Origin: Synergistales bacterium
Lineage (GTDB): Bacteria > Synergistota > Synergistia > Synergistales > JAFGMB01
Length of the DNA stretch: 64,000 nucleotides
Assembly (NCBI GenBank): GCA_963666205.1
Contig: OY762654.1
Coordinates: forward strand, 1,184,001-1,248,000
Direction: 5' to 3'
Made by a program: the position numbers and the translations under genes. The notes below the pieces were generated by a model. It ran no database searches. It saw only the letters and a list, made by a program, of their open reading frames with translations, and was not told the DNA's origin. Below, piece by piece: positions 13,277 to 32,583 of this stretch (the stretch's first letter is position 1; each line of letters opens with the position of its first letter).

Positions 13277-13540
13277 TTACATCCCCCCCCAGATCTATCA
13301 GATAAACTATCTGAAAATATCAAAGAAATGTTCTTTGAAGTACATGATAGCATGATGGCTGATTTTTCTGAACTATTGCAACTTCTTTAAATCTGATTTT
13401 ATCTGTGAATTGAAACATACTGGTAACATAGCTGCAACAGAACATTAACAATATTATGCTATCTTTCTTTCGGTTGAACATGAAAACCTGCCATTAGAGT
13501 TTTTCTCCCTGACTCACAAATACACCTCTTGAAATGAAAG

Positions 13541-13583
13541 CGTAATTGACGGTTACCGCTCCCCTCGGTAACCGTCAATTACG
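13541..13583. repeat. Perfect 18-bp inverted repeat with a 7-nt loop
   Basis: CGTAATTGACGGTTACCG-ctcccct-CGGTAACCGTCAATTACG. Confidence 0.9.
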
Positions 13584-13821
13584 TTCAGGGATGGATTGTT
13601 CCTGCCATATCTAATATAATTTCAATATACAGCCTTCTTTCATATAACAGTCTATGTACAGATCACCCTTTTCCTTTCTTTTCTCAGTCCATTCCATCCC
13701 CTTCCATATCTGCCTCTTTTCATTACAACCGACCTGCTTTTTGTAATTGCGTGAAAAGAGATGGGAAAACCCCTGGAGAAAAAGGTCACACCTTTATTTA
13801 CACGGAGAGGAGAATCGAAGG

Positions 13822-14253
13822 ATGAAGAGAATGATCGCAGGAAGGGTAATTATGATCTTCTGTATCTTATGCTGTGTCACATCTCCATCAGCAGGTGCAA
13901 CAAGAGCCTACGATCCTGCACCAGCCGATGGGTCGGGAAGTGTTCCCCTTCAACCTGTTTTCAGTTGGAAATATGAGGGGGACAGCTGCAATGTCTATGG
14001 AGGCATTTCCCCTCAGGATCTCAGGCTTGTCATGTCCTATACCACGATGACATGGGTCGAATCGCCTCAAAAGCTGCCTTTCGATACTGTTTTTTTCTGG
14101 CGGGTGGACGTCAACTCCGGAGATCAGGTTCTTGAAGGAGACATCTGGTCATTCAGGACCGAATCGCTTTCGGACTCGGTAGGCTGCAGTTTAACAAAAG
14201 GGGTTTCCTGGTTACCTGTTATTTTACCTCTTTTTATTTTACTGCTGAGATAA
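13822..14253 (+). CDS. Small secreted protein with a SYNERG-CTERM-like sorting signal
   Basis: Signal peptide; PAPADGS...FSW...FFWRVD...GDIWSFRT beta-sandwich; C-terminus VGCSLTKGVSWLPVILPLFILLLR. Confidence 0.7.
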   Translation: MKRMIAGRVIMIFCILCCVTSPSAGATRAYDPAPADGSGSVPLQPVFSWKYEGDSCNVYGGISPQDLRLVMSYTTMTWVESPQKLPFDTVFFWRVDVNSGDQVLEGDIWSFRTESLSDSVGCSLTKGVSWLPVILPLFILLLR

Positions 14254-14365
14254 AACAGGGTTCTTCCTGTTGATCCAGTATCATTGCCTTGAAAGAAGGG
14301 GAAGGGTTGCAATCCTGTAAGAAAGCCTTTTACATGAGGTATATCCTTTCCCTTTAATAGAAGAT

Positions 14366-14406
14366 AGACAAGAGAAGGGTCCCCCGAGGGAACCCTTCTC
14401 TTGTCT
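14366..14406. terminator. Hairpin terminator between convergent genes
   Basis: AGACAAGAGAAGGGT...ACCCTTCTCTTGTCT, 15-bp stem. Confidence 0.75.
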
Positions 14407-14437
14407 TAATTACAGAACCTGCGTATCTCTTCTCTGA

Positions 14438-15190
14438 TCACTGTTCCCATTTCTGCTCTATGGAAGCAAGAGTTCCATCCTCTTTCAGTGCTTTCAGCGC
14501 CTTGTTAACTGCATCAAGGAGAAGGGTATCTGCCTTGTTCATAGCAAATGCCTTGGGGGCTCCTTCGAGTTCCACCGCAAATGCCACTTTCAGCTTACCC
14601 TCAAACTGATCAGAGCCGGCATAATCCTTAGCAACAGGCTCATCCATAAATGCCGCATCTACACGGTTCAGGGATATTTCCCTTACTGCATCATCAAGTT
14701 TGCTGAATTTCCTGACCTCCACCCCTTCAAGACCCGAAACATAGAGGTCTTCTGTAGTCCCTAACTGAACTGAGACTTTTTTGCCCTTAAGATCATCCAG
14801 CCCCTTTATACTGTCATCATCTTTCAATGTGATAAAAGCACTGAAGGTTATAACATATGGATCTGAAAAATTAACTTTTTTGCTCCGTTCGGATGTCACG
14901 CTCATGCAGGCAGCTATCATGTCTATCTTGTTGGTCAGAAGGGCAGGAATAAGTCCGTCAAAAGCCATATCAACCCATTCCACTTTTTTGCCCATTTTTT
15001 CTGCCACAGCGTTGACCAGGTCGATATCATAACCTACAAGAGCACCTGATTTATCGTGAAATTCGAAGGGAGGATAGGTTCCTTCAGTTCCGACAACAAT
15101 AACATCCTTATCCATTACAGATGCTGCAAAAGCCGTTCCGGCAATTAGGATAAGGGCCAATACCGCAAAAATAGATACTATTTTTTTCAT
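14438..15190 (-). CDS. Polar amino acid ABC transporter substrate-binding protein (family 3)
   Basis: Signal peptide; VGTEGTYPPFEF, GYDIDL, FDGLIPAL, VQLGTT. Confidence 0.92.
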   Translation of the reverse strand: MKKIVSIFAVLALILIAGTAFAASVMDKDVIVVGTEGTYPPFEFHDKSGALVGYDIDLVNAVAEKMGKKVEWVDMAFDGLIPALLTNKIDMIAACMSVTSERSKKVNFSDPYVITFSAFITLKDDDSIKGLDDLKGKKVSVQLGTTEDLYVSGLEGVEVRKFSKLDDAVREISLNRVDAAFMDEPVAKDYAGSDQFEGKLKVAFAVELEGAPKAFAMNKADTLLLDAVNKALKALKEDGTLASIEQKWEQ

Positions 15191-15460
15191 AATATCTCCT
15201 CCTTGAATATATATTTGTTTATTTTTTAGTTTATAATTTTACTTGAGTTTATTAATAGGGTTTATTATACTCCATGAAACTTTCATGTCAAACTCATGAT
15301 AGCATCCTGATTGAATTGCCATATCTTCTGCATATCCCGGTCTGATAACATGAATTCCCTGAATTCGATAACAAGATAGAACACAATTTAATTCTGAGGA
15401 CTCATATGATTGAAAGATTTCAGTGTAAAATGGCACTAATCCAACCAGGAGGTGGTCATT

Positions 15461-16657
15461 ATGCTTAACAGGATCAGAGAACTTGCAGATAAACAGGGTT
15501 CCCGAATGACAGAACTAAGGCATCATTTTCATTCAAATCCGGAATTATCCTGGCAGGAAGTTGAAACAACCCGTAAAATTGCCGAAATAATAGAGGATCT
15601 GGGGTTCGAGAACATAAGGACAGGTTTCGGGGGAACTGAAAGCGGACTTACAGCCGACCTTAACCTGGAAAAAGAAGGTCCTATGGTTGCTTTAAGGGCA
15701 GATATTGATGCCCTCCCCCTTACAGAAGAAAATGACATACCCTATCGTTCAACAAGAGATGGGGTTATGCACGCATGCGGCCATGATGCTCATGCAACAA
15801 TGCTAATCGGGGCAGCAACCATTCTGTCCGAGATCAAGGATGATCTTCCCGGCCGTGTAAGGCTTATATTCCAGCCAGCGGAGGAACACGGGTTGAAGTC
15901 AGGTGCGGAAACCATGATAGCCGAAGGAGTTCTTGACGGGGTCGATGCTATCGCGGGTCTGCATATATGGTCCTCCGTCCCTTCAGGGAAAATCGGATTC
16001 AGGAGCGGTCCGATAATGGCTTCGGCAGATGTATGGGAAATAACCGTCAAGGGTAAAGGCGGTCACGGATCGATGCCCCATAATGCCATTGATCCCACCA
16101 TAGCTGCAGCTACGGTAATAACAACGATGCAGACGGTAGTAAGCAGGGAGATCGACCCACAGGACACAGTGGTGCTGAGCATTGGCCAGATAGAATCAGG
16201 AACTGCCGCCAATATCATACCGGAATCGGCTACACTTAAAGGCAATATCCGAACCACAAGTCCCGAAACACGGGCAGCCATCCCTGAAAAGATGGAAAGG
16301 ATCATGAAGGGCATCTGCTCAGCCATGAGATGCGAAGGGATCCTCAATTTCATGAATATATATCCGGTAACGGTAAATGACGAGAAACTCTCAGATCTCG
16401 CAATAAGCACTGCCATAGAGATGTTAGGGGAGAATTACGTTGAAAAAGCCCCTCTCCTTATGGGATCCGAAGATTTCAGCTATTACGGGGAAAAAGTCCC
16501 TGGTACTTTCTTTCTCCTGGGATGCGGGAACAAAGAAAAGGGAACGAACAATCAGCATCATTCTCCAAGATTCAACATCGATGACGATGTCCTTCCCTCA
16601 GGCACTGCCATGCTCGCAGGATTTGCCTGGAAATTCCTGTCTGAACAGGGAAAATAG
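15461..16657 (+). CDS. M20D family amidohydrolase
   Basis: HSNPELS, LRADIDALP, MHACGHDAH, FQPAEE, GSEDF, HHSPRF. Confidence 0.93.
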   Translation: MLNRIRELADKQGSRMTELRHHFHSNPELSWQEVETTRKIAEIIEDLGFENIRTGFGGTESGLTADLNLEKEGPMVALRADIDALPLTEENDIPYRSTRDGVMHACGHDAHATMLIGAATILSEIKDDLPGRVRLIFQPAEEHGLKSGAETMIAEGVLDGVDAIAGLHIWSSVPSGKIGFRSGPIMASADVWEITVKGKGGHGSMPHNAIDPTIAAATVITTMQTVVSREIDPQDTVVLSIGQIESGTAANIIPESATLKGNIRTTSPETRAAIPEKMERIMKGICSAMRCEGILNFMNIYPVTVNDEKLSDLAISTAIEMLGENYVEKAPLLMGSEDFSYYGEKVPGTFFLLGCGNKEKGTNNQHHSPRFNIDDDVLPSGTAMLAGFAWKFLSEQGK

Positions 16658-16757: not shown

Positions 16758-17522
16758 TCAGTATTCAGAATTTATTTCAAGCCTTCTGGCAAGGAGTTCA
16801 GAAAAAGGGTTCAGCTTGCTCTGCTCTTCAAGGATGTCAAAGGTGTAACCCAGATGAGATTCAGCTGCCTTGAGCGCTTTATGGCCATCCTGAGTAACAA
16901 TTGCATTGACCAGATCCTCATGCTGCTGGAGAATTGCCGCAGTTCTTTCCGGCTGCTCTGAATCAAGGATCTGCATTCGCATGGATACTATGGATTTTTC
17001 CATAAGCTCGGTAATATTCTCGTGGATCCTGGACAGGATGGTATTATGGGTTGCCTGAAAGATCGTATTATGGAGGACCGTGTTCCAATAGGCCCCCTGC
17101 TGGGCCTCATCTCTTCCATGTTCTGAAAATATCATTTTCAGTTCTCCCAGACATGCTTTCAGTTTTTCAACATCATCATCTGTTCTTCTCAAAGATGCAA
17201 GATAGGCAGCTTTTCCCTCGATGATCTGCCTGATCTCCATAACCTGCCCCAGGGTTTCCATGGGCCAGAGAAATGCCAGACCTATCCTTGGAGGAAGATC
17301 CCTGCTTTCTCTTCCTAAAAGAAAGATACCCTGCCTTTCCCGAACTTCCAGAAGACCCATGGCTTCAAGGGACACAATAGCTTCCCGCAACAGGGTCCTG
17401 CTGACCTTCAAAAGGTCAGACAATACCCTCTCCGTAGGCAGTTTACCCTTATCATCAATAACGTTTCCTGACTCAATGAGCTCCAAAAGATCGTCTATTG
17501 TCTTTTTTCGACTATCATTCAT
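16758..17522 (-). CDS. GntR/FadR family transcriptional regulator
   Basis: KLPTERVLS...VSRTLLREA winged HTH; FCD domain (EIRQIIE, HEDLVNAI). Confidence 0.92.
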   Translation of the reverse strand: MNDSRKKTIDDLLELIESGNVIDDKGKLPTERVLSDLLKVSRTLLREAIVSLEAMGLLEVRERQGIFLLGRESRDLPPRIGLAFLWPMETLGQVMEIRQIIEGKAAYLASLRRTDDDVEKLKACLGELKMIFSEHGRDEAQQGAYWNTVLHNTIFQATHNTILSRIHENITELMEKSIVSMRMQILDSEQPERTAAILQQHEDLVNAIVTQDGHKALKAAESHLGYTFDILEEQSKLNPFSELLARRLEINSEY

Positions 17523-17617
17523 TTTTCATACTCCTGTCTTATGTCTGATATCAACGATCAACATAAATAGTAACACAGGCAAACCAGTTGAATGAATTTT
17601 CGGATGCGAGATACTTC

Positions 17618-17682
17618 TTGAAATAATCTGAACATTATGATAGCATTTTTAGTGAGGTTTTGGAATACCTTGGTATACCAAG
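17618..17682 (+). promoter_or_regulatory. Promoter and FadR-type operator for the dehydrogenase-TRAP-larA operon
   Basis: TTGAAA, 17 nt, TAGCAT; downstream perfect palindrome CTTGGTATACCAAG (17669-17682) preceded by the half-repeat TTGGAATACC. Confidence 0.7.
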
Positions 17683-17757
17683 ATATTCATTCTCCCCTTT
17701 CCCCTGAGACAATGGATAAGTTGTAGTTTAAGATCGACAATATTCTATCTAAGGCAG

Positions 17758-19245
17758 GTGTCCTTCTTGAAAAAAGGATACGATGTGACGATCATAGGAG
17801 GAGGAGTTGTGGGGTGTGCCATAGCCCGCGAGCTTTCACGATTTGACCTCTTTGTTTCACTCATAGAAAAAGAATACGATGTAGGACTGGGAACAAGCAG
17901 CAGGAACAGCGGGGTTATCCACTCCGGTATCAATTACAAGCCTGGGACGATAAGAGCGAAGGTAAACGTCCGTGGAAACGAACTTATGGATAAACTCTGC
18001 AGGGAAATCAAGGTCAAAATGAAACGAATCGGCAAAATAACTGTCGCCAGAGATGAGAAAGATATCCCCACCCTGTATCGTTTGAAGGAACAGGGTGAAG
18101 CCAATGGAGTTCCTGGTCTGAAGATCCTGGACCAGAAAGAAATGCGGAAAGTCCAGCCCGGGGCAGGTGGGATCGGTGCATTATATTCTCCAAGCAGTGG
18201 AATAGTCTGCCCCTATGGTCTGACCATAGGTCTTGCCGAAAATGCCCATGATAACGGAGTTCACTTTCACCTGGGTCAGGAGGTTTCCTCAATAGAAACT
18301 CTCACTGATGGCGGATTTATGATCCGGACAAAGTCAGGAACCCGTCTCCAGACTCAGATCCTTATCAATGCTGCCGGCCTGTTTGCCGATTCCATCTGCA
18401 GGATGACTGGAATTGAAGAATATCGGATATATCCATGCAGAGGGGAATATTATGTCCTTGACAAACGCCTCGACGGGACTATAAAGACACTCATCTACCC
18501 TGCACCCAGGGCAGATGATCCTGGCCTGGGTATCCATCTGACTCCCACCGTTGACGGCAATATCCTCATAGGGCCCAGTGCTGAATATATCGAAGAACAT
18601 GAAGATTATGCATGTACTGCAGAGGTTATGAAATCTCTACGGGAAGAAGGGCATAATCTTCTCCCTGATCTTCAGATGTCCGACTTCATCCGCAACTTCT
18701 CCGGAGTTCGTCCAAAGCTTACTCCTCCTGAAGTGGGGGGCAATAGCGATTTCGTCATAGAGGACAGGAAAGACATCACCGGATTTATCAATCTGGTAGG
18801 AATAGAAAGTCCGGGACTCACATCTGCTCCTGCAATTGCGGAGATGGTTTCGTCAATGGTCGGCAAACATCTGCCTCTGAGGCCTAATGTCAATTTCAGC
18901 CCTGACAGCAAGGGATCTCCCTTCTTCTTCAGCGAACTTCCCGAGGAAGAAAAGAAACATCTAATCTCTGAAAACCCTAATTACGGAGAGATCATCTGCA
19001 GATGTGAAAAGATAACAAAACAGGAAATTCTCGATGCCATAAACAACCCCCTCGGAGCAAGAACCTTCGTCAGCATCAAATACAGGGCTAGATCGGGCAT
19101 GGGAAGATGCCAGGGAGGATTCTGCATGCCCAGGATAACTAAAATACTAAGGGATGAATTCGGGCTCTCTCCTGAAGACTTTATCCTGAGAGGTAGAACT
19201 TCCCCTCTCTTTGTCGGCAAAGTAAGAGAGGGGGACCAGGGATAA
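17758..19245 (+). CDS. FAD-dependent dehydrogenase (LhgO/GlpA-like) with C-terminal BFD-like [2Fe-2S] domain
   Basis: IIGGGVVG, TSSRNSGVIHSG, GIESPGLTSAPA; ICRCE...GMGRCQGGFC. Confidence 0.88.
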   Translation: MSFLKKGYDVTIIGGGVVGCAIARELSRFDLFVSLIEKEYDVGLGTSSRNSGVIHSGINYKPGTIRAKVNVRGNELMDKLCREIKVKMKRIGKITVARDEKDIPTLYRLKEQGEANGVPGLKILDQKEMRKVQPGAGGIGALYSPSSGIVCPYGLTIGLAENAHDNGVHFHLGQEVSSIETLTDGGFMIRTKSGTRLQTQILINAAGLFADSICRMTGIEEYRIYPCRGEYYVLDKRLDGTIKTLIYPAPRADDPGLGIHLTPTVDGNILIGPSAEYIEEHEDYACTAEVMKSLREEGHNLLPDLQMSDFIRNFSGVRPKLTPPEVGGNSDFVIEDRKDITGFINLVGIESPGLTSAPAIAEMVSSMVGKHLPLRPNVNFSPDSKGSPFFFSELPEEEKKHLISENPNYGEIICRCEKITKQEILDAINNPLGARTFVSIKYRARSGMGRCQGGFCMPRITKILRDEFGLSPEDFILRGRTSPLFVGKVREGDQG

Positions 19246-20483
19246 TGACCGTTGAAAAAAGAGGTATTGTGGTAATAGGAGGAGGACCGGCAGGACTTGC
19301 GGCTGCCATATCCGCCAGAGAGAATGGCTGCGAGGATGTGCTTCTGGTCGAAAGGGACAGGATACTGGGAGGCATTCTTAACCAGTGTATCCATGACGGT
19401 TTCGGTCTTCATACTTTCGGAAGCAGCCTTTCCGGTCCGGAATATGCAGGGCGTTTTATCGACCGTTTCCAGGAACTTGGAATAAAGGTAATGGAAGGTT
19501 CCATAGTCCTTTCCCTTGATGAGAACAGGGTCCTTTCTGTAAGTTCGAGGGAAGGTTATAGAATCATCCAGGCTGATGCGGTAATTCTAGCCATGGGCTG
19601 CAGAGAGAGAACCAGGGGAGCTATTTCCATCCCCGGCAGGAGGCCCTCGGGAATATACACAGCAGGCGCCGCCCAGAACCTCATAAACCTTGAGAACATA
19701 ATGGTCGGGAAAAGAGTCTGCATTCTCGGTTCCGGTGATATAGGCCTTATCATGGCAAGAAGAATGACCCTTGAGGGAGCCAGGGTGGAAGCGGTTTTCG
19801 AACTCCTGCCCTATTCAAGCGGGCTTCCCCGGAATATTCAGCAATGCCTTAACGACTACGATATTCCTCTCTTCCTGAGCACAACTGTCACCAATATCCA
19901 TGGGAAAGACCGTCTTGAAGGAATCAGCGTGGCTCAGGTTGGCCAGGATCGATGCCCCATTCCCGAAACAGAAAGATACGTACCCTGCGATACCCTTCTC
20001 CTTTCGGTAGGCCTGATCCCTGAAAATGACCTTTCCAGGGATACCGGCATTGATCTGGATCCCAAAACGAGCGGAGCCATAGTGGACGATACCTTCATGA
20101 CCAGCATCCCTGGTATTTTCGCCTGTGGCAACGTGCTTCACGTTCATGACCTGGTTGACTGGGTTTCCCTGGAAGCAGCAGACGCCGGAGCCTTTGCAGC
20201 CAGTTATGTCAGAGGAATTAAAAAAGGGAGATCTTACATTCCGGTCTCAGCTGGAGAAGGGATAAGGTACACTCTGCCCCAGGCCATTTCAGGAAGAATG
20301 GATCTGACTTTATCCATGAGAGTATCAGCACCATGGAGGGACAGAACCATTGTAATAAAGGACGGTGAAAGGGAAATAAAGAGAAAAAGAATGGTCCGTC
20401 TCCATCCAGCGGAAATGATAAGGGTAGATCTGAAAGCCAATGAACTTGTTTCCTGTTCAAGGCTGGAGGTGAGCGTGGAATGA
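19245..20483 (+). CDS. NAD(P)/FAD-dependent oxidoreductase (pyridine nucleotide-disulfide family)
   Basis: IGGGPAG, GGILNQCIHDGFG, AMGCRERTRG, LGSGDIG, GIFACGNVLHVHDLVD. Confidence 0.88.
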   Translation: MTVEKRGIVVIGGGPAGLAAAISARENGCEDVLLVERDRILGGILNQCIHDGFGLHTFGSSLSGPEYAGRFIDRFQELGIKVMEGSIVLSLDENRVLSVSSREGYRIIQADAVILAMGCRERTRGAISIPGRRPSGIYTAGAAQNLINLENIMVGKRVCILGSGDIGLIMARRMTLEGARVEAVFELLPYSSGLPRNIQQCLNDYDIPLFLSTTVTNIHGKDRLEGISVAQVGQDRCPIPETERYVPCDTLLLSVGLIPENDLSRDTGIDLDPKTSGAIVDDTFMTSIPGIFACGNVLHVHDLVDWVSLEAADAGAFAASYVRGIKKGRSYIPVSAGEGIRYTLPQAISGRMDLTLSMRVSAPWRDRTIVIKDGEREIKRKRMVRLHPAEMIRVDLKANELVSCSRLEVSVE

Positions 20484-20917
20484 GCATCAGGGAATACACA
20501 TGTGTGGTATGCCCTAATGGATGTACCCTGAAGGTTGAAGTTAAGGATGGTGAAAAACCTGAATTCGTCAAGGTTGAAGGGAACATCTGTAAAAGGGGAG
20601 AAAGCTGGGCAAGACAGGAAGTGGAAAATCCGCTGAGGACCATTGCCAGCAGTGTTCTGGTCAGGGGAGGGGAATTTCCCCTGGCCAGTGTAAGGACGGA
20701 TTCACCTATTCCACTGGAATCCATAGGGGCAGTAATGAATGATATCCGGTCCATTACTCTGGATGCTCCCCTTGAAATCGGAGATGTGGTTATAGAGAAG
20801 CCGGCAGGAACAGATTGCAGGATCATCGTTACAAGAAAGGTCAAGTGCAAAGAAAAGGAAGTGCGTCTCACCGGGAATTCCATAACGGGGGAAAGGGAAT
20901 TGCTGAAACAAAATTAA
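20480..20917 (+). CDS. DUF1667 family small Cys-rich subunit
   Basis: TCVVCPNGC...GNICKRG...NPLRT; usual third gene of this dehydrogenase triad. Confidence 0.85.
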   Translation: MSIREYTCVVCPNGCTLKVEVKDGEKPEFVKVEGNICKRGESWARQEVENPLRTIASSVLVRGGEFPLASVRTDSPIPLESIGAVMNDIRSITLDAPLEIGDVVIEKPAGTDCRIIVTRKVKCKEKEVRLTGNSITGERELLKQN

Positions 20918-20936
20918 TTCTTAAGGGGGAAATAAA

Positions 20937-21953
20937 ATGAAAAAGCTGGTTGGCATTATGTTAGTAGCATTGCTCGCAGTAACTTGTATTTTCTTCAGTT
21001 TTTCCGTTCAGGCAGAGGCAAAGACCTACAGGATCAATATCGCTACGGCTACCACAGGCGGGGCATATTACCCCATAGGAAACGCCATGGCACAGATATG
21101 GACAAAGAAACTCGACGGAGTTAAAGCTGCAGCCCAGTCAACTGCAGGAACTCCACAGAATGTTGAACTTATGATGAATGCAGAAGTTCAGATAGCATTA
21201 GGTCAAAACGGGATCTGCTATTATGCATTTAATGGTACCGGAACCTATGAAGGGAAAAAAGGATTTCCTGCCAGATCACTGAGAGGGATTACAGCCCTTT
21301 ATCCCAATGTAATGCACTGGGTAGTAGCTGCTGATTCGGGAATAAGCAGTATTTCAGAACTGGAAGGAAAGAAAATAGTTCCGGGAGCCGTCGCCAGTGC
21401 TACCGAAATTAACACCAGGGAAATGCTTAGTGCCTACGGGCTTAACTACATGAAAGACGCCGGGGAAGTGAATGTAAAAGCCGACTTTGTAGGATACAAT
21501 GAAGCTGTAGATCTTCTGAAGAACAGGCAGATAGTTGCTTCCCACATTGCTGGCGGAGTACCTACTGCAGCAGTGCTGGATGTATTGTCTACCGGGGCAG
21601 CAAAACTGATCTCCCTTGAAGAGGACAAGATACAGGAGATTACCGAAAAATATCCATGGTATTTCCCCTATACTATCAAGGCCGGGACCTACCCGAAACA
21701 GGAGGAAGACATACATACCATAGCTCTTTCAAACATTCTTTTCACCAGAGAAGATCAGCCTGAGGAATTGATCTACATGATAACCAAAGGGATCTACGAC
21801 TATCATGAAGATCTTGTCAATGCCCATAAAGCTACAAAAAACACCATATTGGAAAACGCCCTCAATGGAATGACCCTGCCTCTCCATCCCGGGTCAGTTA
21901 AATATTACAGAGAACAGGGTATTGAGATACCGGCAAAGCTGATCGCTCAATAG
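20937..21953 (+). CDS. TAXI-family TRAP transporter substrate-binding protein
   Basis: Signal peptide; IATATTGGAYYPIG, LYPN, PLHPG. Confidence 0.92.
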   Translation: MKKLVGIMLVALLAVTCIFFSFSVQAEAKTYRINIATATTGGAYYPIGNAMAQIWTKKLDGVKAAAQSTAGTPQNVELMMNAEVQIALGQNGICYYAFNGTGTYEGKKGFPARSLRGITALYPNVMHWVVAADSGISSISELEGKKIVPGAVASATEINTREMLSAYGLNYMKDAGEVNVKADFVGYNEAVDLLKNRQIVASHIAGGVPTAAVLDVLSTGAAKLISLEEDKIQEITEKYPWYFPYTIKAGTYPKQEEDIHTIALSNILFTREDQPEELIYMITKGIYDYHEDLVNAHKATKNTILENALNGMTLPLHPGSVKYYREQGIEIPAKLIAQ

Positions 21954-22035
21954 TCAGGACAGAGATCACTATGCAGGAGGAACTTTACCCGTTCCTCCTG
22001 CTTCCAAGTACATGAAAGTTAAGGAGGTTTCGGAC

Positions 22036-24012
22036 ATGGCCGAAACTACTAATCTAAATACCGAAACATCTACCGGGAAGGAACTTGACGCAGAAAAGGT
22101 CCTCGAAAAGGTGGACTCTGAGTCCAGATTCAGAAAATTCAGTGGCAAGTGGGCTATAGTTATCAGTTTCGTAGCTATTGCCATGTCCGTTTTTCACCTT
22201 TACACATCAGGTTTCGGCACCTTAATGGCTATGAAGCACCGCAGCGTTCACCTGGCTTTCCTCCTCACTCTCACTTTCCTTCTTTACCCGGCTTCCAAAG
22301 GATCGCCCCGGAAGAGATTGAGTTTTTTTGATTATGTATGGTTGGCATTGGGACTATCTTCCAGTCTTTACATTCTTTTCTTCTTTGATGCTTTCAGTAT
22401 CAGGGGTACTGCCGTAACATCCGATTATGTTATGGGAACTATCCTCATAATATGTGTCCTGGAAGCATCACGGAGAACCATAGGAAAAGAACTTACGATC
22501 CTGGCCATGATCTTCCTCGCTTACGGTTTCTGGGGTGAATACATACCCGGAGTCCTTGGTCATACAGGATTTACCTTCAAAAGGATCGTTTACCATCTGT
22601 ATCTTTCATCTGAAGGTATTTTCGGCATAGCCCTCGGGGTATCATCTACATACATATTCCTCTTTATCCTTTTTGGTGCATTCCTTACAGAAACGGGCAT
22701 GGGACTTTTCATCAAGGACCTTGCCATGTCCCTGGCGGGGCGTACCATTGGAGGAGAAGCAAAGGTTTCCATTATCGCAAGCGGTCTTATGGGAATGATA
22801 AATGGAAGTGCCGTAGGCAACGTTGCAGCAACGGGAACATTTACCATCCCCTTAATGCGGGATGCCGGATTCAAACCCGTATTTTCAGCAGCAGTTGTAG
22901 CAGTAGCTGGAACAGGCGGGATGATTATGCCTCCTGTCATGGGAGCCGCTTCCTTTATAATGGCAGAATTTCTGGGTATCCATTATTCGAAGATCATGTT
23001 AGCAGCAGCCATACCAGCCGTACTTTACTACCTCGCCGAGTATTCTGTCATTCATATAGAAGCTATTAAAATGGGTATGACAAGAATACCCCACGAAAAT
23101 ATTATCCCCTTACGGGTCGTCATGAAGGAAAGGGGACATCTTATGGTCCCTATCCTGGTTATTGTATGGCTTCTTCTCACGGGCAGGACACCTCTGTACG
23201 CAGCTTTTTACGGAATTATATCTTCACTTGTTGTCAGTTCTCTGAAAAAGGAAACAAGGCTTACTCCCAAAGCCTTTCTGAGAGCATTGGAACAGGGAGC
23301 ACGGGGAACCGTGGGAGTGGGTATGGCATGTGCAGTTGTGGGAAATATAATCGGGATCACAAATCTCACGGGATTAGGACTTGTTCTGGGAGACAACATA
23401 GTATCACTGGCTCATGGAAGCGTAATCGTAACGATTTTCCTGACCATGGTGGTCTGTATAATACTGGGAATGGGTCTTCCAACTACCGCCTGCTACATAG
23501 TTACCGCAACTATTGCAGCACCGGCACTGCTACAATTGGGAATAAATCCACTGGCTGCACATATGTTTGCCTATTACTTCGCATGTCTTTCCAATCTTAC
23601 CCCTCCTGTAGCAATAGCATCCTATGGCGCCGCGGGCATATCCGGCCAAAAACCCTCAGAAGTTGGATGGACAGGGTTCAGAATATCTCTCGCAGCTTTC
23701 CTGATACCCTTCACATTTGTCTATAGTCCGGAATTGTTACTTGTTCAGGGATCTTTTATGGATATAGGAATAGCGGTAGGGACAAGTGTTATAGGCGTTA
23801 TAGCCATAGCGGCAGCAGTACAGAATTTCCTTATAGGACCACTGAATATAGCCCAGAGGATCATGCTTTTCGCCGGAGCGGTCCTGCTTATATTCCCCGG
23901 GATAATGACAGATGGCCTTGGCATAGCCCTTACAGCTATTGTTGTAATCTGGCAGAAACTGGCAGGTACCTCCTATACCCCTCCCCTTCGATCCAGGGAA
24001 CAGGAAGCCTGA
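22036..24012 (+). CDS. TRAP transporter fused 4TM/12TM permease
   Basis: GMINGSAVGNVAATGTFTIP, MPPVMGAASF, LGMGLPTTACY, TPPVA; AAGGAGG RBS. Confidence 0.93.
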   Translation: MAETTNLNTETSTGKELDAEKVLEKVDSESRFRKFSGKWAIVISFVAIAMSVFHLYTSGFGTLMAMKHRSVHLAFLLTLTFLLYPASKGSPRKRLSFFDYVWLALGLSSSLYILFFFDAFSIRGTAVTSDYVMGTILIICVLEASRRTIGKELTILAMIFLAYGFWGEYIPGVLGHTGFTFKRIVYHLYLSSEGIFGIALGVSSTYIFLFILFGAFLTETGMGLFIKDLAMSLAGRTIGGEAKVSIIASGLMGMINGSAVGNVAATGTFTIPLMRDAGFKPVFSAAVVAVAGTGGMIMPPVMGAASFIMAEFLGIHYSKIMLAAAIPAVLYYLAEYSVIHIEAIKMGMTRIPHENIIPLRVVMKERGHLMVPILVIVWLLLTGRTPLYAAFYGIISSLVVSSLKKETRLTPKAFLRALEQGARGTVGVGMACAVVGNIIGITNLTGLGLVLGDNIVSLAHGSVIVTIFLTMVVCIILGMGLPTTACYIVTATIAAPALLQLGINPLAAHMFAYYFACLSNLTPPVAIASYGAAGISGQKPSEVGWTGFRISLAAFLIPFTFVYSPELLLVQGSFMDIGIAVGTSVIGVIAIAAAVQNFLIGPLNIAQRIMLFAGAVLLIFPGIMTDGLGIALTAIVVIWQKLAGTSYTPPLRSREQEA

Positions 24013-24084
24013 TAAAGATATTTTCTCTGACCGTCATATAATGATACAAGATCTGGATCTTTTGTTCATTCTGGAGGCTGATCT

Positions 24085-25350
24085 ATGAAAACTGCATTTA
24101 AATACGGAAAACAAGAGCTTACCATCAATATCCCCGATAAAAATCTTCTGGGGATACTGGAACCTTCCGGGCTCGATCCTATCAAAGATCTGGATAAAGA
24201 GGTCAGGACTCTGCTTGAACAACCTACAGCGGGACCTTCTCTGTCTAAGCTCATCCGGATGATCAAGCCCAGGAAAGTGGCGGTCATCGTAAATGATCTG
24301 ACCCGATCTACTCCGACCCCGGAATTACTGCCACCGGTTATCGAAAAGCTCCTGGGTCAGGGGATATCAAGGGAACAGATAGACATCATCATAGCAACAG
24401 GTACACACAGGCCCATGGATAGGGAAGAGATCACAAGCATTACAGGGGAAAACATTTTCAGGGAATTCAATGTCATAAATCATGACTGCGATTCTCCCGA
24501 TCTGGTAACCATGGGAATACTTTCAGGTGAGAATGAACTCAGGATCAACCGGATCGTTGCTGAAGCAGATATCCGGATCGCCATAGGTGAAGTTCTTTTA
24601 CACTACTATGCCGGGTTTGCCGGAGGGAGAAAAAGCATCCTTCCCGGTGTAGCCGGAAGAGAGACCATAATGAAGAATCATCACATGATGACCTTTCCGG
24701 GAGTAGGGATAGGGAAAACATCCGGAAATCCTGTAAGTGAACAGATGGTTGAAGCGGTTGAAAAATATTGTCCCCTTCATTTTATCGTTAACTGCGTGAG
24801 TAACAGCCATAAACAGGTGGTCACACTGGTGGCCGGTGATGCTGTAAAAGCATGGGAAAAGGGAATAGAAGTCTTCAGGAAGATGAATTTTGCTCCTGTT
24901 GAGAAAAAGGCAGACGTGGTGTTTGTATCTGCAGGGGGGTTTCCCAAGGATATAAACATGTACCAGGCTCATAAGGCTCTTGAAATGTGCTCTGCTGCTG
25001 TAAAGGAAGGCGGTAGCATCGTTTTCTTTGCAGAATTGGCAGAAGGGTATGGACATCCTGTTTTTCAGGAATGGGCAGAAAGACAGATGGAACCATACGA
25101 AGCTGTCCAAACCTTTGAGAAAAATTTCAGATTTGGAGCACATAAAATTTACTATCTGGCAAAGCTGGCACAGAAATGTGATATTTACCTCTACTCTTCA
25201 GTGGCCGGAATAGACTCACGAAAAATGTACTGCCATAAGTTAGACTCTCTGGAAGAGATCCTTCCCCTTATCATCAGAAAATACGGAAGCAGCTTTTCCT
25301 CATGGGTAATACCCCAGGGAGGGATCGTGCTTCCCGTTTACAACTCTTAA
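24085..25350 (+). CDS. LarA-family nickel-pincer alpha-hydroxy-acid racemase/epimerase
   Basis: NDLTR, ATGTHR, NHD, HYYAGFAGGRKSILPG, NH, GGFPKDINMYQAHK. Confidence 0.88.
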   Translation: MKTAFKYGKQELTINIPDKNLLGILEPSGLDPIKDLDKEVRTLLEQPTAGPSLSKLIRMIKPRKVAVIVNDLTRSTPTPELLPPVIEKLLGQGISREQIDIIIATGTHRPMDREEITSITGENIFREFNVINHDCDSPDLVTMGILSGENELRINRIVAEADIRIAIGEVLLHYYAGFAGGRKSILPGVAGRETIMKNHHMMTFPGVGIGKTSGNPVSEQMVEAVEKYCPLHFIVNCVSNSHKQVVTLVAGDAVKAWEKGIEVFRKMNFAPVEKKADVVFVSAGGFPKDINMYQAHKALEMCSAAVKEGGSIVFFAELAEGYGHPVFQEWAERQMEPYEAVQTFEKNFRFGAHKIYYLAKLAQKCDIYLYSSVAGIDSRKMYCHKLDSLEEILPLIIRKYGSSFSSWVIPQGGIVLPVYNS

Positions 25351-25504
25351 GAAAACTGGAATTTAAAACCGGTTTCTTAAATCCGGAAATTTTACAGGGG
25401 GCCTCAGGAGGTCCCCTTCTTTAATTTTGCAAAAACAGTAAAACACTCTCAGATCTTAGGGGAAAGATCGCCTGTATTTCTTAGATAATCTTTTCTCCCT
25501 GATC

Positions 25505-26239
25505 TTACCGGCTTTTTTCGATAAGCTCGGCTATTTTTTCAGCCATCATGCGGTAACCGTCTCCGTTGGGATGTATATAATCACTCTTGAGAGAAGCATT
25601 CGATAAAATCTTTCTGAGGACCTTTCCTTCATAAAGAACAGAAAGATCGCGGGCAACCCTTCTGTATAATTTGGGCACCGACAGAGTCAGCCTGGTACTC
25701 GGAACACCAATGACCATTACATCAATGTCCCGTTCCTGCAGGATCGATACCATACTCCTGAGATCTCTCTCTATTTCATCCTCTTCTCTGCCCCTCAGGA
25801 GATCGTTTCCGCCCTCGCAGAGAATGACCAGCCGTGGAGAATATTTCTCCAGAACACCCGGAAGCCTTTCCAGACCCTCGGATATGGTCTCTCCGGGAAC
25901 ACCCGAATTGATCACTTTCATACCGAGCATCGCTTCCAGAAGGACCGGATATGAACTATCTACGGGAGCCCCTGTTCCATAGGTTATGCTGTCACCAAAG
26001 GCCAGGAGAAGACTTTCCGATGACAGAGTAAGTGTCGGGCCAGCTGATCCACATGGAGAAAAAACAAAAAATGACATCCATAAAAACAGAAATCCCAGAA
26101 AGACCTTCATTCCGACAAAAGACATCTTCAATGCCCTAACACCTCCAGAAGCAACTCTTTTCTTTATATCACAAAACAGGGGGACAGGAGAAATTTCTCC
26201 CCCTACCCCCCTGTCAGCAGAATCCTTCAGGCGGTTCAA
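25505..26239 (-). CDS. SGNH/GDSL arylesterase (true start probably downstream of the listed one)
   Basis: FGDSITYG, NSGVPGE, GGND and DYIHPN blocks. Confidence 0.88.
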   Translation of the reverse strand: MNRLKDSADRGVGGEISPVPLFCDIKKRVASGGVRALKMSFVGMKVFLGFLFLWMSFFVFSPCGSAGPTLTLSSESLLLAFGDSITYGTGAPVDSSYPVLLEAMLGMKVINSGVPGETISEGLERLPGVLEKYSPRLVILCEGGNDLLRGREEDEIERDLRSMVSILQERDIDVMVIGVPSTRLTLSVPKLYRRVARDLSVLYEGKVLRKILSNASLKSDYIHPNGDGYRMMAEKIAELIEKSR

Positions 26240-26249
26240 TTATTCATTA

Positions 26250-27671
26250 TCAGCAGTTGTAATAAAGTTCATATTCTTTAGCCGTTACCCTGGCCTTGAC
26301 TTCCACGGCCTCCTGCCTTTTAACCTTTATCCAGTGGGCAAGGAAATTTTCAGAGAAAACGTCATCGGAAGTCAGGAAAGAATGGTCTTTTTCGAGCCCA
26401 TCCAGAGCTTCGTCCAGACTTGCAGGTAAAAGTTTCATGCCATCAGCCTGCTCATAAATATTCTTTTCCAGGGGACCGAATCCCCCCTTCATGGGGTCTA
26501 TCCGGTTTCTGACTCCATCAAGTCCAGCCATAAGGAGAGAGGCAAACATAAGGTAAATGTTTGCTGTTGCATCTCCTGAACGGAATTCGAATCTCCTGGC
26601 TTCAGGATCTTTTGCATAACCGGGTATCCTGATGGCGCCGCTCCTGTTTCCCGTAGCAAAGGCAATTGCGATGGGAGCCTCATAACCTCTGACAAGTCGA
26701 CGATAGGAGTTTGTTGAAGGACAGACCAGTCCCATCAGGGCAGGGGTGTGGGTCAGGATACCCCCAAGAAAGTGGAGGGCAGTATTGGAAAGGGCCGCGT
26801 AATTGGAATCAGGTCCAGCAAAAACTGACTTGCCATCCTTACGCATAAGCATATGGACGTGGAGTCCGTTACCGGCCTCTCCGAAAGTGGTCTTTGGCAT
26901 GAAAGTCGCCGTCAGACCATATTTTGCAGCACTGTTTTTTACTATGTATTTGATCAGCATTGATGCGTCGGCCAGCTTCATGGCCTCGTCAAGCTGAACC
27001 TCGATTTCCTGCTGACCATTTGTACCAACTTCATGATGATGATATTTAACATCGATCCCAAGCTGATCGATAAGTAATGCTGCTTCAGACCGCAGATCCC
27101 TGTATATGTCATGGGGTGCTTCAATATGATATGCCCTGCAGGGAGGAAGCTGATTCCCTCCCTCAAGAGCCTCGTCTTCAACATTCCATCCCGAAGGCCT
27201 GCTGATTATTTTGTATCCGCTTCCGCTGATCTCGTCCCTGAACTGGATCCCATCGAAGATGTTATACTCGAATTCAGGTCCTACGATGAATTCATCAGCA
27301 ATATCCATGTCCTTCATTACCTGAATGGCCTTCTGAAGGATCCTCCTCGGATCCCCGCCATAGGGTTTGAACCCTTCAGAAGTTATCTCCTTTACACTGC
27401 CGAGAAAGCTCAGGGTATTTCTCTCCCAGAAAGGATCAATAAAGGCCGTTCTGAAATCAGGAACAAAAACCATATCACTGGACTCAATGGGAGCATAGCC
27501 GTAATTGGAACCATCGAATCCGAAACCCTTTTCGAACAGTTTTTTCGACAGCCTGCTTGCAGGTATGGAAAGATGCCTCCACCTTCCCTGGATATCTGTG
27601 ACCTTGATATCCAGCATTTCCACTTCCTGCTCTTTTACATACTCAGCTAATTCATCGTAACTACTGAACAA
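26250..27671 (-). CDS. glnA: Glutamine synthetase type I
   Basis: FDGS, GPEFE, HHHEV, ATFMPK, GNGLHVH, NSYRRLV, NRSGAIRIP; TTG start at 27671 after an RBS. Confidence 0.95.
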   Translation of the reverse strand: MFSSYDELAEYVKEQEVEMLDIKVTDIQGRWRHLSIPASRLSKKLFEKGFGFDGSNYGYAPIESSDMVFVPDFRTAFIDPFWERNTLSFLGSVKEITSEGFKPYGGDPRRILQKAIQVMKDMDIADEFIVGPEFEYNIFDGIQFRDEISGSGYKIISRPSGWNVEDEALEGGNQLPPCRAYHIEAPHDIYRDLRSEAALLIDQLGIDVKYHHHEVGTNGQQEIEVQLDEAMKLADASMLIKYIVKNSAAKYGLTATFMPKTTFGEAGNGLHVHMLMRKDGKSVFAGPDSNYAALSNTALHFLGGILTHTPALMGLVCPSTNSYRRLVRGYEAPIAIAFATGNRSGAIRIPGYAKDPEARRFEFRSGDATANIYLMFASLLMAGLDGVRNRIDPMKGGFGPLEKNIYEQADGMKLLPASLDEALDGLEKDHSFLTSDDVFSENFLAHWIKVKRQEAVEVKARVTAKEYELYYNC

Positions 27672-27909
27672 TTTAATACCCCCTGTGTGATCGATCTCTG
27701 AAACAAATAAAAAGATCTTTCCCTGAAACAATATAAACCTTGCAATATATTCCGTACAGTGGGACAATAGTCCTACTCAATAGAATATATTACAATGTTA
27801 TTCCTGGTAGAATATTTTGTCAATTTATTCGAGGTAACTATTTTTTCAGGAATGCTTGAATTAAAATGCTTTTTCTTTTATCTTTTCATGTATATTTTCA
27901 ACCAGGAAG

Positions 27910-28662
27910 GTGGATATCATTTCCGAAGGACTTGTTTCAAAAACTGCAAAGGTAATGGAAACTCTTCTGGAAGAACAGAAGAGCACGAGTTTAAGGAAAA
28001 TTGCGGAAAAGTGCGATATGCCGAAAAGCACTCTTCACAGGATACTTTCGTCCCTTGAAGAAGAGGGCTGGGTCTATAGAAATCCCAGTAAAAGGGAATA
28101 TCGTATCGGCATACGCTTTATGTGTTTTGCCCAGAAATGGAGACTCAATCAGGAACTGACCCTCCTTGCACATCCCCTGATGGAGTCACTCTCGAAAGTT
28201 TCGGGTGAAACTGCAGTTCTGGCAGTTCGGGAAAAAAAGGAGATCCGCTGCCTGGAAGTGGTGGAAACATCAAATCCCATCAAATATCATTTCCGGATCG
28301 GGACAAAACTTCCCATTCATGCAGGCGCAATGGGCAAGATCATCCTGGCATACTCCCCCCTTCAGTTAAAGGAAGAAATCCTCTCCTCTCCCCTTGAAAA
28401 ATTCACCGACAACACCCTTACATCCCCTGACATCCTCAGGAGAGAATTAGAACTGATAAGAGAGAGAGGATACTCAGTTAGCATAGAGGAAGTAGACATC
28501 GGCGGAGCTGCCATCGGTGCTCCTATCCTTGGACCAGAGGGAGAACTCCTCGCCGGACTGATCCTTGACGGACTGACCCATCGCATAGAAACAAGACTGG
28601 AAGATATGGTCCCCATGGTTACAGAGACTGCCGGAAAAATCACAGATCTGGTATCATCTTAA
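27910..28662 (+). CDS. IclR family transcriptional regulator
   Basis: PKSTLHRIL HTH; LPIHAGAMGK; RERGYSVS. Confidence 0.92.
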   Translation: MDIISEGLVSKTAKVMETLLEEQKSTSLRKIAEKCDMPKSTLHRILSSLEEEGWVYRNPSKREYRIGIRFMCFAQKWRLNQELTLLAHPLMESLSKVSGETAVLAVREKKEIRCLEVVETSNPIKYHFRIGTKLPIHAGAMGKIILAYSPLQLKEEILSSPLEKFTDNTLTSPDILRRELELIRERGYSVSIEEVDIGGAAIGAPILGPEGELLAGLILDGLTHRIETRLEDMVPMVTETAGKITDLVSS

Positions 28663-28802
28663 GAAAGTACAGGGATCATTATCCTGTCCGATAAACAATT
28701 CCTTATATCCTGAAACGTTCCTTTCATGAAGAAGAGATTTTGTTTAAAGATCTTAATGAAGGACAGGCTTTTCTCCCTGAACAAACAAGGAGACAGGCCA
28801 TT

Positions 28803-29237
28803 ATGATAAAAAGAGTTATCCTGTGTTTGATTATTCTTCTTATCTATCCTTCTACAAGAAGCATAGCCCTGGAAAGGGCGTATAACCCCTGGCCTCCTGA
28901 TGGTTCTACTGGAGTTTCCATATACACTGATTTCGCCTGGGACCATGATGGGGAAAGCTCAAGTCTCTATTTAGGAACAAGCCCGGGAAACCTTCAAAGA
29001 CTTCTCTACAGGTCTACTGCTAAAAGTTTCGATCTTTACAGCAGCCTGAGCCTGAACAAAAGGTACTACTGGAGAGTTGACGTTCATAACGCAAATACTA
29101 CCGTTACGGGAAAGGTGTGGACCTTCAGGACAAGATCATCCTTCGCTGGAGTGGTGGTAGGGTGCAATGTAGCAAGGCTCACAGGCATTTCTTCGATCAT
29201 ATTCTTTTTGCCTCTCTTATTGCTTAAACAAAAATAA
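28803..29237 (+). CDS. Small secreted protein with a SYNERG-CTERM-like signal (paralog of 13822)
   Basis: RAYNPWPPDGS...FAW...YYWRVD...GKVWTFRT; C-terminus VGCNVARLTGISSIIFFLPLLLLKQK. Confidence 0.7.
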   Translation: MIKRVILCLIILLIYPSTRSIALERAYNPWPPDGSTGVSIYTDFAWDHDGESSSLYLGTSPGNLQRLLYRSTAKSFDLYSSLSLNKRYYWRVDVHNANTTVTGKVWTFRTRSSFAGVVVGCNVARLTGISSIIFFLPLLLLKQK

Positions 29238-29319
29238 TACCGGAATGAATCTTCAGTATATCTCCATGATTACAGAGTTTCATGTAAAATAATTGTCTAA
29301 GATCAATGCAGAATAAGGA

Positions 29320-29715: not shown

Positions 29716-29716
29716 A

Positions 29717-29754
29717 ATAGAGGGCAGGGGAAACCTGCCCTCTATAATTTTTTT
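29717..29754. terminator. Intrinsic terminator between convergent genes
   Basis: ATAGAGGGCAGG-ggaaa-CCTGCCCTCTAT followed by a T-run. Confidence 0.8.
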
Positions 29755-29763
29755 CTACCAGGA

Positions 29764-31011: not shown

Positions 31012-31228
31012 CTTTGATCATCCCTCATCCTGAAATTTAAAGGTCTTCTGTAAACAAGATATGGGTCAATTATATTTCTTTATCCCCTTTATGTGAAAAT
31101 ATACTTTATAATTTTTAAATATGGATAACACTTCTAAAAGTTACCTTATGGAATGGTAAAACCACCAGGTAAAAGCGCTGGGAATTCCCTGAAAACTCAT
31201 AGCCATAACAGGATCGGAGGTCTGATGA

Positions 31229-32509: not shown

Positions 32510-32583
32510 GTATGATCGAGACAGATAACAATGTCCTTCCTGAAAACCGGAAGGCCATTGTTATCATAAATATAACCTGTTAT

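Follow-up and report, generated by a model that had tools for sequence, protein, structure and literature searches.

A gene cluster in the genome of a Synergistales bacterium is probably a regulated operon for the uptake and catabolism of a 2-hydroxy-dicarboxylic acid, with malate as the most likely substrate. The cluster lies at positions 16758 to 25350 of the 64,000-nucleotide stretch that we analyzed (the window; positions 1184001-1248000 of a single-contig, 2.95-Mb genome that is 100% complete). It comprises a divergently transcribed regulator gene and an operon for a three-subunit dehydrogenase, a solute-binding protein, a fused permease, and a homologue of the racemase LarA. An earlier note on this DNA had described these seven genes, and each was recovered where it had been placed, by open reading frame and by Pfam and NCBIfam matches.

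In the scheme we propose, a TAXI-family binding protein and a fused TRAP permease would import the acid, and a nickel-pincer (NPN) LarA homologue would interconvert its D and L forms. An FngABC-type dehydrogenase would then oxidize the L form, yielding the 2-oxo acid (oxaloacetate in the case of malate) and passing electrons from the substrate and from reduced ferredoxin together to NAD+. This confurcation, proposed by analogy with FngABC of Pyrococcus furiosus, would make an otherwise uphill oxidation feasible without oxygen or quinone. The divergent GntR/FCD regulator would bind an operator just after the -10 element and would be released by the acid or by its oxo product. Import, racemization, and oxygen-independent stereospecific oxidation had already been suggested in the earlier note, and that outline is supported here by the linkage to larA, the presence of larBCE, and the L-2-hydroxy-acid contacts of the dehydrogenase. 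On the other hand, the note had given 2-hydroxyglutarate as its example of a substrate, and malate or a closely similar C4 acid now appears the likelier one in view of the racemase signature, the neighbors of related genes, and the fumarase-linked relatives of the dehydrogenase.

A dehydrogenase of the FngABC family

Three consecutive genes on the forward strand encode the dehydrogenase. The FngA-like large subunit (17758-19245; Pfam DAO, 246 bits, and Fer2_BFD) is an FAD dehydrogenase that ends in a BFD-type [2Fe-2S] domain, the FngB-like protein (19245-20483; Pyr_redox_2, 110 bits) is an FAD/NAD subunit with two GxGxxG motifs, and the FngC-like protein (20480-20917; PF07892, 94 bits) is a DUF1667 subunit that presumably carries a [4Fe-4S] cluster. 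Cys414, 416, 451, and 456 of the BFD domain and Cys8, 11, 15, and 37 of the DUF1667 subunit are the ligand sets expected for these clusters, whose types are taken from PMC13689815. By Pfam domains and A-B-C gene order the triad has the make-up of FngABC, and by its sequence it is a member of that family. Its DUF1667 gene is the only one in the genome, which therefore holds a single such triad.

FngABC of P. furiosus (PF2005-2007) has the same domain make-up and was described in October 2026 by Schut, Poole and Adams (PMC13689815) as a ferredoxin- and NAD-dependent electron-bifurcating glycerol-3-phosphate oxidoreductase. It is presented there as the fifth class of electron-bifurcating enzyme, with glycerol-3-phosphate as its sole proven substrate. 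The enzyme is reported to link the oxidation of glycerol-3-phosphate and ferredoxin with NAD+ reduction, to be inactive with any two of the three substrates, and to be freely reversible, the formation of reduced ferredoxin from dihydroxyacetone phosphate and NADH being the faster direction (Table 1 of PMC13689815). According to the same source, 32% of the homologues have no glycerol-related neighbors, and the authors assume other polyols as substrates; racemases, LarA, hydroxy acids, TRAP systems, and the term Synergist are not mentioned in its main text. Membership in this family supplies a concrete mechanism for the oxidation that the earlier note had called oxygen-independent, and by analogy the window enzyme is rather likely to share the ferredoxin and NAD coupling of FngABC.

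The best NCBIfam match of the large subunit was type 2 glycerol-3-phosphate oxidase (283 bits, cut-off 460), and the subunit also matched NF008726, the L-2-hydroxyglutarate oxidase family of Escherichia coli LhgO (243 bits, cut-off 299, over model positions 1-282 of 389). Its nearest solved structures were Drosophila L-2-hydroxyglutarate dehydrogenase (L2HGDH; 8w75, the best match), Bordetella Bp3253 (3dme), and Mycoplasma GlpO (4x9m). The kinship to L-2-hydroxyglutarate oxidase that the earlier note had stated is thus borne out by both the family model and the best structural match.

To place the triad among its relatives, we used the DUF1667 gene, which was present in 164 of 268 Synergistota genomes. 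The regions within 10 kb on either side of 40 such genes were compared with the window proteins and grouped by FngA identity to the window, so that the neighboring genes are an independent observation. In 24 loci (class II) FngA was 33-42% identical to that of the window, and 22 of these had glpK directly upstream, in line with the earlier remark that kin of the triad often lie beside this gene. All four class II glpK genes tested scored 734-759 bits on TIGR01311 (cut-off 590), and one of the two loci lacking glpK is cut by a contig end. In contrast, glpK was found in none of the 13 class I loci, where FngA was 59-94% identical to the window. Nine of these had the TAXI protein, the permease, and a LarA homologue as neighbors, three had an isomerase of NPN group 22, and one had the regulator alone; a LarA-superfamily isomerase therefore adjoins the triad in 12 of 13. 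The group 22 isomerase (NF052515) lay directly after fngC, two copies scoring 488 and 510 bits (cut-off 400) and the third being recognized by 80% identity. In three Synergistota genomes (loci L164 to L166, for example L165:8641-13098), fngA, fngB, fngC, and this isomerase form a four-gene unit without a transporter, and the unit of L165 adjoins NuoF-like and bifurcating-type [FeFe]-hydrogenase genes.

The two classes occur together in five genomes. The remaining three loci (L128, L130, and L132, in genomes G001, G003, and G004 from another family of the phylum) form an intermediate group with FngA 48-51% identical to the window; they have neither glpK nor a LarA-family neighbor, and a glpK-linked copy is present in these genomes as well. 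In a quick IQ-TREE analysis the glpK-linked rows were split off by a branch with SH-aLRT support of 100 and class I stood on another (90). As the earlier note had observed for the cluster, glpK is absent there, and no glycerol kinase was found in the whole 2.95-Mb genome (best TIGR01311 match 70 bits). The best glycerol-kinase-like match (G000:C1 2012183-2013555) is an FGGY-family kinase that reads through one TGA and into a second overlapping frame, and it may be a broken gene.

The linkage was also observed from the LarA side. This search gave 80 genome loci, 14 of them with LarA at least 52% identical to the operon protein. Dehydrogenase genes accompanied larA in 11 of the 14, and in the other three the contig breaks off on the side in question. 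Among the 11, two had the order TAXI-permease-larA-fngABC and two others carried 3.5 kb of inserted DNA. The triad was absent from all 66 loci whose LarA was at most 40% identical. The earlier note had made its proposal depend on larA being conserved with the cluster, and this linkage is kept down to 52% LarA identity; because the genes stay together in other Synergistota despite their rearranged order, the cluster is not a chance arrangement. Some related clusters have gained an Ldh_2-family dehydrogenase gene (L022:5572-6732 and L025:6539-8694, the equivalent of L152, L135, and L157), alone in one genome and together with a fumarylacetoacetate-hydrolase (FAH)-family gene in two others. We considered these genes as a clue to the substrate and set them aside, as their best matches are sub-threshold (L-sulfolactate, malate, or ureidoglycolate dehydrogenase; HpaG-like) and too generic.

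The substrate contacts of the large subunit follow the same division. In Drosophila L2HGDH (dmL2HGDH), 2-oxoglutarate is reported to be contacted by S88, H92, Y289, L299, H302, and R393, with Y289 and H302 holding the C1 carboxylate and R393 the one at C5 (PMC10726252). An alignment (chain offset 40) places S51, H55, Y247, L257, H260, and R318 of the window FngA at these six positions. The pattern S-H-Y-L-H-R was found in all 22 class I rows, which represent 17 distinct loci, five having been fetched twice, and in the three rows of the intermediate group. In contrast, the glpK-linked rows read S/T-H-F/H-K-T/L/Y-R, with Y-L-H in 0 of 22, and in Mycoplasma GlpO the three positions that discriminate are F, K, and I. 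Judged from these sequences, a simple rule (Y-L-H versus F/H-K-x) appears to separate a carboxylate-type clade from the glpK-linked clade. Where the classes divide, the contacts thus switch from a phosphate type to a carboxylate type. No other single argument speaks as strongly for a 2-hydroxy carboxylic acid, and we consider such a substrate, rather than glycerol-3-phosphate, very likely. The six contacts leave C4 and C5 acids undivided.

A metagenome scan with the class I FngA alignment confirmed 582 relatives, of which 80 were kept (48-85% identity; many of the contigs are short). The FngA motif read GLGIH in 56 of these and GLGVH in 15, was missed by the pattern in nine, and took the GKG form in none; glpK was likewise found in none of the 80. 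A LarA homologue was present in five loci and a group-22-like isomerase in six. We scanned ten recurrent neighbors from the loci without a racemase, and none was a sugar kinase. A class II fumarate hydratase lay just upstream of fngA in three loci (TIGR00979, 732-746 bits, cut-off 664.75), succinate-CoA ligase genes lay nearby in four, a gene of the 4-hydroxyphenylacetate-hydroxylase/4-hydroxybutyryl-CoA-dehydratase family lay upstream in four, and a GntR-FCD regulator was found in three. Since fumarase makes L-malate, the fumarase context favors malate as the substrate of the family. It is conceivable, if short of an even chance, that the whole of this FngABC-family clade is a ferredoxin/NAD electron-bifurcating L-malate (2-hydroxy-dicarboxylate) dehydrogenase, common in anaerobes and repeatedly recruited beside at least two families of nickel-pincer racemases.

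The LarA homologue and its relatives

The last gene of the operon (24085-25350, forward strand; Lar_N, 212 bits) encodes a LarA-superfamily racemase of a clade next to the malate racemases. It scored 469.9 bits against NF052593, the LarAH6 malate racemase family, and its best solved relative is Mar2 (6d6z). Its best match outside the genome was a record of Acetomicrobium hydrogeniformans (93% identity), and the next matches were all from Synergistota. The protein keeps equivalents of H108, H174, K184, H200, R75, Q295, and K298, in the aligned motifs ATGTHRP, LHYY, GGRK, KNHH, TRS, and YQAHK (residue list from PMC11770544), and by this sequence criterion it is catalytically complete. The contrast drawn in the earlier note between an HYY loop here and an HFF loop in the other window copy holds: the operon protein reads LHYYAGFAGGRK and the second LarA (32584-33855, reverse strand) reads PHFFAGFSGGRK.

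A rule for substrate selectivity in this superfamily is given by Urdiain-Arraiza et al. (PMC11770544): lactate racemases have F,F,W,E/Q at four positions, 2-hydroxyglutarate racemases Y,F,H/Q,T, and malate racemases x,x,H/Q,K. The operon LarA reads Y,Y,H,K. This fits the malate-racemase H/Q,K rule at the positions of LarA1 W358 and T359, while the signature of the 2-hydroxyglutarate racemases LarAH7 and LarAH32 is not matched in this protein and their NQT motif is absent. Its AHK aligns with AHK of Mar2 and with QWQ of LarAH2. Desguin et al. (PMC7583248) assign K351 of Mar2 to the second carboxylate, and they read a GHK motif as indicating malate or a close analogue and NQT as indicating 2-hydroxyglutarate.

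The 17 distinct cluster-linked LarA sequences are invariant in NDxTRSTP, LHYYAGFAGGRK, MYQAHK, and FGAHK followed by bulky residues, whereas the canonical malate-racemase-like pattern is SDxTRPxP, HYF, MYQAQKA, and LGGHKAAA. Placing the protein in the family phylogeny had been suggested in the earlier note. In a FastTree analysis the 17 sequences fall into a single clade (support 1.0), found only in Synergistota in the samples taken. Its sister (0.86) consists of seven sequences, which come from Halanaerobiales, a record of Syntrophomonadaceae, and one labelled Deltaproteobacteria. Four of the seven sister genes were scanned for neighbors: two lie behind malic enzyme, one lies ahead of an Ldh_1-type malate/lactate dehydrogenase, and the fourth has as its neighbor a GlcD-type FAD oxidase that is paired with a CCG iron-sulfur protein. 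The cofactor-synthesis genes that the note had expected elsewhere in the genome are present as well: larB, larE, and larC lie side by side at genome positions 2372180-2374804 in the sole cluster of this kind, and all three score above their cut-offs.

The genome holds five LarA homologues in all. Besides the two in the window they lie at G000:C1 827505-828752, 1330416-1331717, and 1798400-1799653, and one of these three is a canonical malate racemase by NCBIfam (563 bits). Its neighbors, a ProC-like reductase and, 4 kb away, a TDT/SLAC1-type transporter, do not inform on any division of work with the operon copy. The other two fit no curated family; they have HEL and HRV loops and best scores of 272 and 308 bits, below the cut-offs. 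The second window copy scored 585 bits as a lactate racemase, and its signature F,F,W,Q is the pattern of LarAH43, which is reported to work best on lactate and glycerate (PMC11770544). It is accompanied by an Fe-alcohol-dehydrogenase-like gene (31229-32509), a glycerate 2-kinase gene (29764-31011, reverse strand) that lies 4.4 kb from the operon, and a gene for an IclR/BhcR-like regulator (27910-28662), and positions 27910-33855 may be a glycerate-racemizing module.

Importer, regulator, and genome setting

The importer is encoded between the dehydrogenase and the racemase by genes for a TAXI-family TRAP solute-binding protein (20937-21953; TIGR02122, 304 bits, above cut-off) with a signal-like N-terminus, consistent with a signal peptide, and for a fused, DctQM-type TRAP permease (22012-24012; TIGR02123, 677 bits, above cut-off), both on the forward strand. 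The permease is 60-97% identical in related clusters. In VcGluP of Vibrio cholerae, E125 is reported to bind the amino group of glutamate (PMC11574862). The window protein keeps Y45 and Q93 of VcGluP and has N in place of E125, and so lacks the residue expected of a glutamate-specific TAXI protein of the VcGluP/TtGluBP type. V. cholerae VCA0144, which also has N at this position, is reported to bind neither Glu nor Gln (PMC12718363), and a Proteus TAXI protein specific for 2-oxoglutarate and 2-hydroxyglutarate is on record (PMC12344293). Because the closest known structures bind glutamate or have no known ligand, they offer a negative hint, against glutamate; none of the solved chains carries the label of the Proteus protein.

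The divergent gene (16758-17522, reverse strand) encodes a regulator with Pfam GntR and FCD domains, of the FadR subfamily; its best NCBIfam matches were LldR, PdhR, and GlcC, all far below cut-off. A homologue (37-95% identity) was divergent from the triad in 10 of 13 class I loci. Between the regulator gene and fngA lies a candidate operator (17660-17682) that consists of TTGGAATACC and, after it, the palindrome TTGGTATACCAA. Their composite motif, TTGG(A/T)A(T/G)ACC-TTGGTnnACCA(A), was found at the same place in 11 of 12 intergenic regions between regulator and fngA, including that of the window, which holds one exact copy against 0.11 expected; the twelfth (L137) has the TGGTnnACCA box only. 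In the window the two elements stand just after a -10-like element, and related loci have a matching -10 immediately upstream of theirs. The conserved motif probably ties the regulator to the operon, and its shape is typical of FadR-subfamily operators.

The -10-like element belongs to a promoter-like site, TTGAAA-17-TAGCAT with TG (17618-17646, forward strand); a consensus scan gave no more sites in the window than in shuffled sequences, and it is by its position that we assign this one to the operon. The genes on the forward strand are separated by -1, -4, 19, 58, and 72 bases: the start of fngB shares one base with the stop of fngA, fngC and fngB overlap by four bases, and GGAGG stands 8 nt ahead of the larA ATG. 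The start of fngA may be the TTG at 17767, since the purine run AAGGCAGG is too near the GTG at 17758. The operon ends in a terminator-like hairpin (25396-25417, forward strand) with a 9-bp stem, six GC pairs, and the T-tract TCTTTAATTT. In the same scan the other terminator-like sites on this strand were weaker and inside genes, and none fell in the intergenic gaps of 17758-25350.

RNA-derived sequence was available as assembled contigs of a relative about 96% identical, from three metatranscriptome runs of one study. They cover 19096-20012 (fngA/fngB), 20328-22503 (the end of fngB, fngC, the TAXI gene, and the start of the permease gene), and 24210-25520 (larA). Such RNA-library contigs are no proof of transcription or of a single transcript, and the uncovered parts are neutral.

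On either side of the operon (12359-16657 and 25505-27767) are genes for a glutaminase, an amino-acid ABC binding protein, an M20 amidohydrolase, a GDSL-type hydrolase, and a glutamine synthetase. The amidohydrolase, GDSL, and GlnA neighbors are retained in the closest relative only.

Elsewhere the genome has three malic-enzyme-like genes and two beta subunits of Na+-decarboxylases, and no 2-hydroxyglutaryl-CoA dehydratase was found in it. The malate/oxaloacetate couple is near the glycerol-3-phosphate and lactate couples, and confurcation would be useful for its oxidation. The related Anaerobaculum mobile is reported to ferment malate, tartrate, and glycerol, to degrade malate faster with a hydrogen-consuming partner, and not to grow on 2-oxoglutarate, glutamate, or lactate (PMC3739175); as this is another species, its physiology is a hint only.

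Alternative readings and comparison with known systems

Several observations weigh against an operon for malate oxidation. Because L2HGDH is reported to be specific for L-2-hydroxyglutarate and to reject L-malate (PMC10726252), the contacts of the large subunit alone favor the C5 acid. The operon LarA stays below the malate-racemase cut-off of 500 bits and departs from canonical malate racemases in the loop (Y for F), before K298 (H for Q), and after the H-K pair (bulky residues). Within the available DNA, a LarA-family gene was found in only 11 of the 80 metagenomic loci, and most of the longer ones showed none either. With three malic-enzyme-like genes and a canonical malate racemase in the genome, a second route for malate needs a reason, possibly that its oxaloacetate feeds the Na+-pumping decarboxylases. 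Coupling to ferredoxin and NAD is extrapolated from an archaeal enzyme, for which the glpK-linked bacterial paralogues, 33-42% identical in subunit A, served as stand-ins. Finally, the gap between permease and larA is crossed by none of the RNA contigs listed. Weighing these points against the linkage and residue patterns, we give malate itself about an even chance.

The same scheme could serve D- and L-2-hydroxyglutarate, the L form being oxidized to 2-oxoglutarate. We know of no other NAD-independent oxidation of 2-hydroxyglutarate in anaerobes, whereas malate has malic enzyme. All six L2HGDH contacts are kept, including R393 for the C5 carboxylate; the racemase signature agrees with the 2-hydroxyglutarate rule as well at three of its four positions (Y, -, H); and the Proteus protein is the sole recorded TAXI protein with a non-amino-acid dicarboxylate ligand (PMC12344293). 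The fourth signature position is K, however, not T, and NQT is missing; the nearest LarA relatives lie beside malic enzyme or an Ldh_1 dehydrogenase and the dehydrogenase relatives behind fumarase; the genome lacks the dehydratase; and A. mobile does not grow on 2-oxoglutarate or glutamate. We therefore regard this substrate as unlikely. Other hydroxy-dicarboxylates or analogues, such as tartrate (by C2 epimerization and oxidation to oxaloglycolate), citramalate, or sulfolactate, are also improbable, though they have points in their favor. Characterized malate racemases are reported to epimerize tartrate as a side activity (PMC11770544), tartrate has been suggested for Mar1 (Desguin et al., PMC7583248), and A. 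mobile ferments it. The LarA clade differs from the canonical enzymes at three selectivity positions and scores below the cut-off, three related genomes carry the Ldh_2 insert with L-sulfolactate dehydrogenase as its best sub-threshold match (two of them with the FAH-family gene), and a glycerate 2-kinase is near the operon. Against this, the conserved core contains no gene specific for tartrate, citramalate, or a sulfonate, the extra genes are limited to a few genomes, and the fumarase-linked relatives point to malate itself.

That the triad is an ordinary anaerobic glycerol-3-phosphate dehydrogenase with unrelated neighbors is very improbable. It is true that the best NCBIfam match of its large subunit is a glycerol-3-phosphate oxidase and that the only characterized members of the family use this substrate (PMC13689815). 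But the genome has no glycerol kinase, glpK is missing from every genomic and metagenomic class I locus while it accompanies nearly all of the other class, the phosphate-type K and F are replaced by carboxylate-type L and Y together with H, and the linkage to NPN racemases, which are 2-hydroxy-acid enzymes, survives changes in gene order. The enzyme might also run in reverse in vivo, with NADH reducing both the 2-oxo acid, as high-potential acceptor, and ferredoxin (true bifurcation), the electrons going to hydrogen production and the hydroxy acid being the product. This would fit the faster direction of the reversible P. furiosus enzyme (PMC13689815), a reductive C4 branch in the relatives linked to fumarase and succinate-CoA ligase, and the one related locus beside bifurcating-type [FeFe]-hydrogenase genes. 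On the other hand, an importer that depends on a binding protein, together with a racemase and a repressor-type regulator, makes up a layout for catabolic uptake, like that of the lct cluster discussed below. TRAP systems import, and we consider the reverse direction quite unlikely. We infer that flux in the window operon runs from an imported acid, probably malate or a close relative, to its 2-oxo acid.

Each protein family in this operon is known already, as is the lct design. As far as our searches reach, the carboxylate-type FngABC clade, its sequence rule, and its repeated pairing with nickel-pincer racemases are not in print: no title found in the literature searches names a bifurcating malate dehydrogenase, and none of the DUF1667 papers found deals with hydroxy acids, judged by title and abstract. 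If the proposal is true, the window triad would be the first member of the fifth bifurcating class to act on a carboxylic acid, and its pairing with a racemase would let both enantiomers of a hydroxy acid be burned. Because importer, racemase, regulator, and operator are defined, the substrate can be sought through ligand screens. Confirmation would show a quinone-free oxidation of malate-type hydroxy acids by strict anaerobes, would assign a physiological partner to an uncharacterized LarA clade, and would correct a widespread annotation as glycerol-3-phosphate dehydrogenase.

Compared with FngABC of P. furiosus, the window triad has the same three subunit domains, a four-Cys DUF1667 protein, and the A-B-C order with overlapping genes, and bacterial glpK-linked homologues are present in its own phylum. 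It differs in falling in a separate clade, in which the L-2-hydroxy-acid contacts Y, L, and H replace F/H, K, and T/L/Y, and in never being found beside glpK; its partners are instead NPN racemases, a TAXI-TRAP importer, and a GntR regulator. Its large subunit has dmL2HGDH (8w75) as its top solved structure and shares all six substrate contacts with it, but L2HGDH and LhgO are single-subunit, quinone- or oxygen-linked proteins that have no [2Fe-2S] domain and no B or C partner. The racemase resembles Mar2/LarAH6 of Thermoanaerobacterium thermosaccharolyticum (6d6z) in both catalytic His residues, the tethering Lys, and the His-Lys pair that includes K351, and differs from it in the loop (HYY versus HYK/HYF), in having H for Q293, and in bulky residues for AAA after H-K.

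As a whole, the operon is most like the lct cluster of Acetobacterium woodii and Anaerobutyricum, which is described as encoding a regulator (lctA), EtfAB (lctBC), an FAD lactate dehydrogenase (lctD), a permease (lctE), and a LarA racemase (lctF) (PMC8914356). Both combine a regulator, an importer, an NPN racemase, and a flavin-based confurcating dehydrogenase, and in both the oxidation of a 2-hydroxy acid by NAD+ alone would be uphill, as PMC8914356 states for lct. In the window FngABC replaces the GlcD-type lactate dehydrogenase and EtfAB, TAXI-TRAP replaces the lactate permease, and the racemase resembles malate racemases where that of lct acts on lactate, so that only the racemase superfamily is common to both. 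If confirmed, the operon would extend the lactate logic of lct to dicarboxylates.

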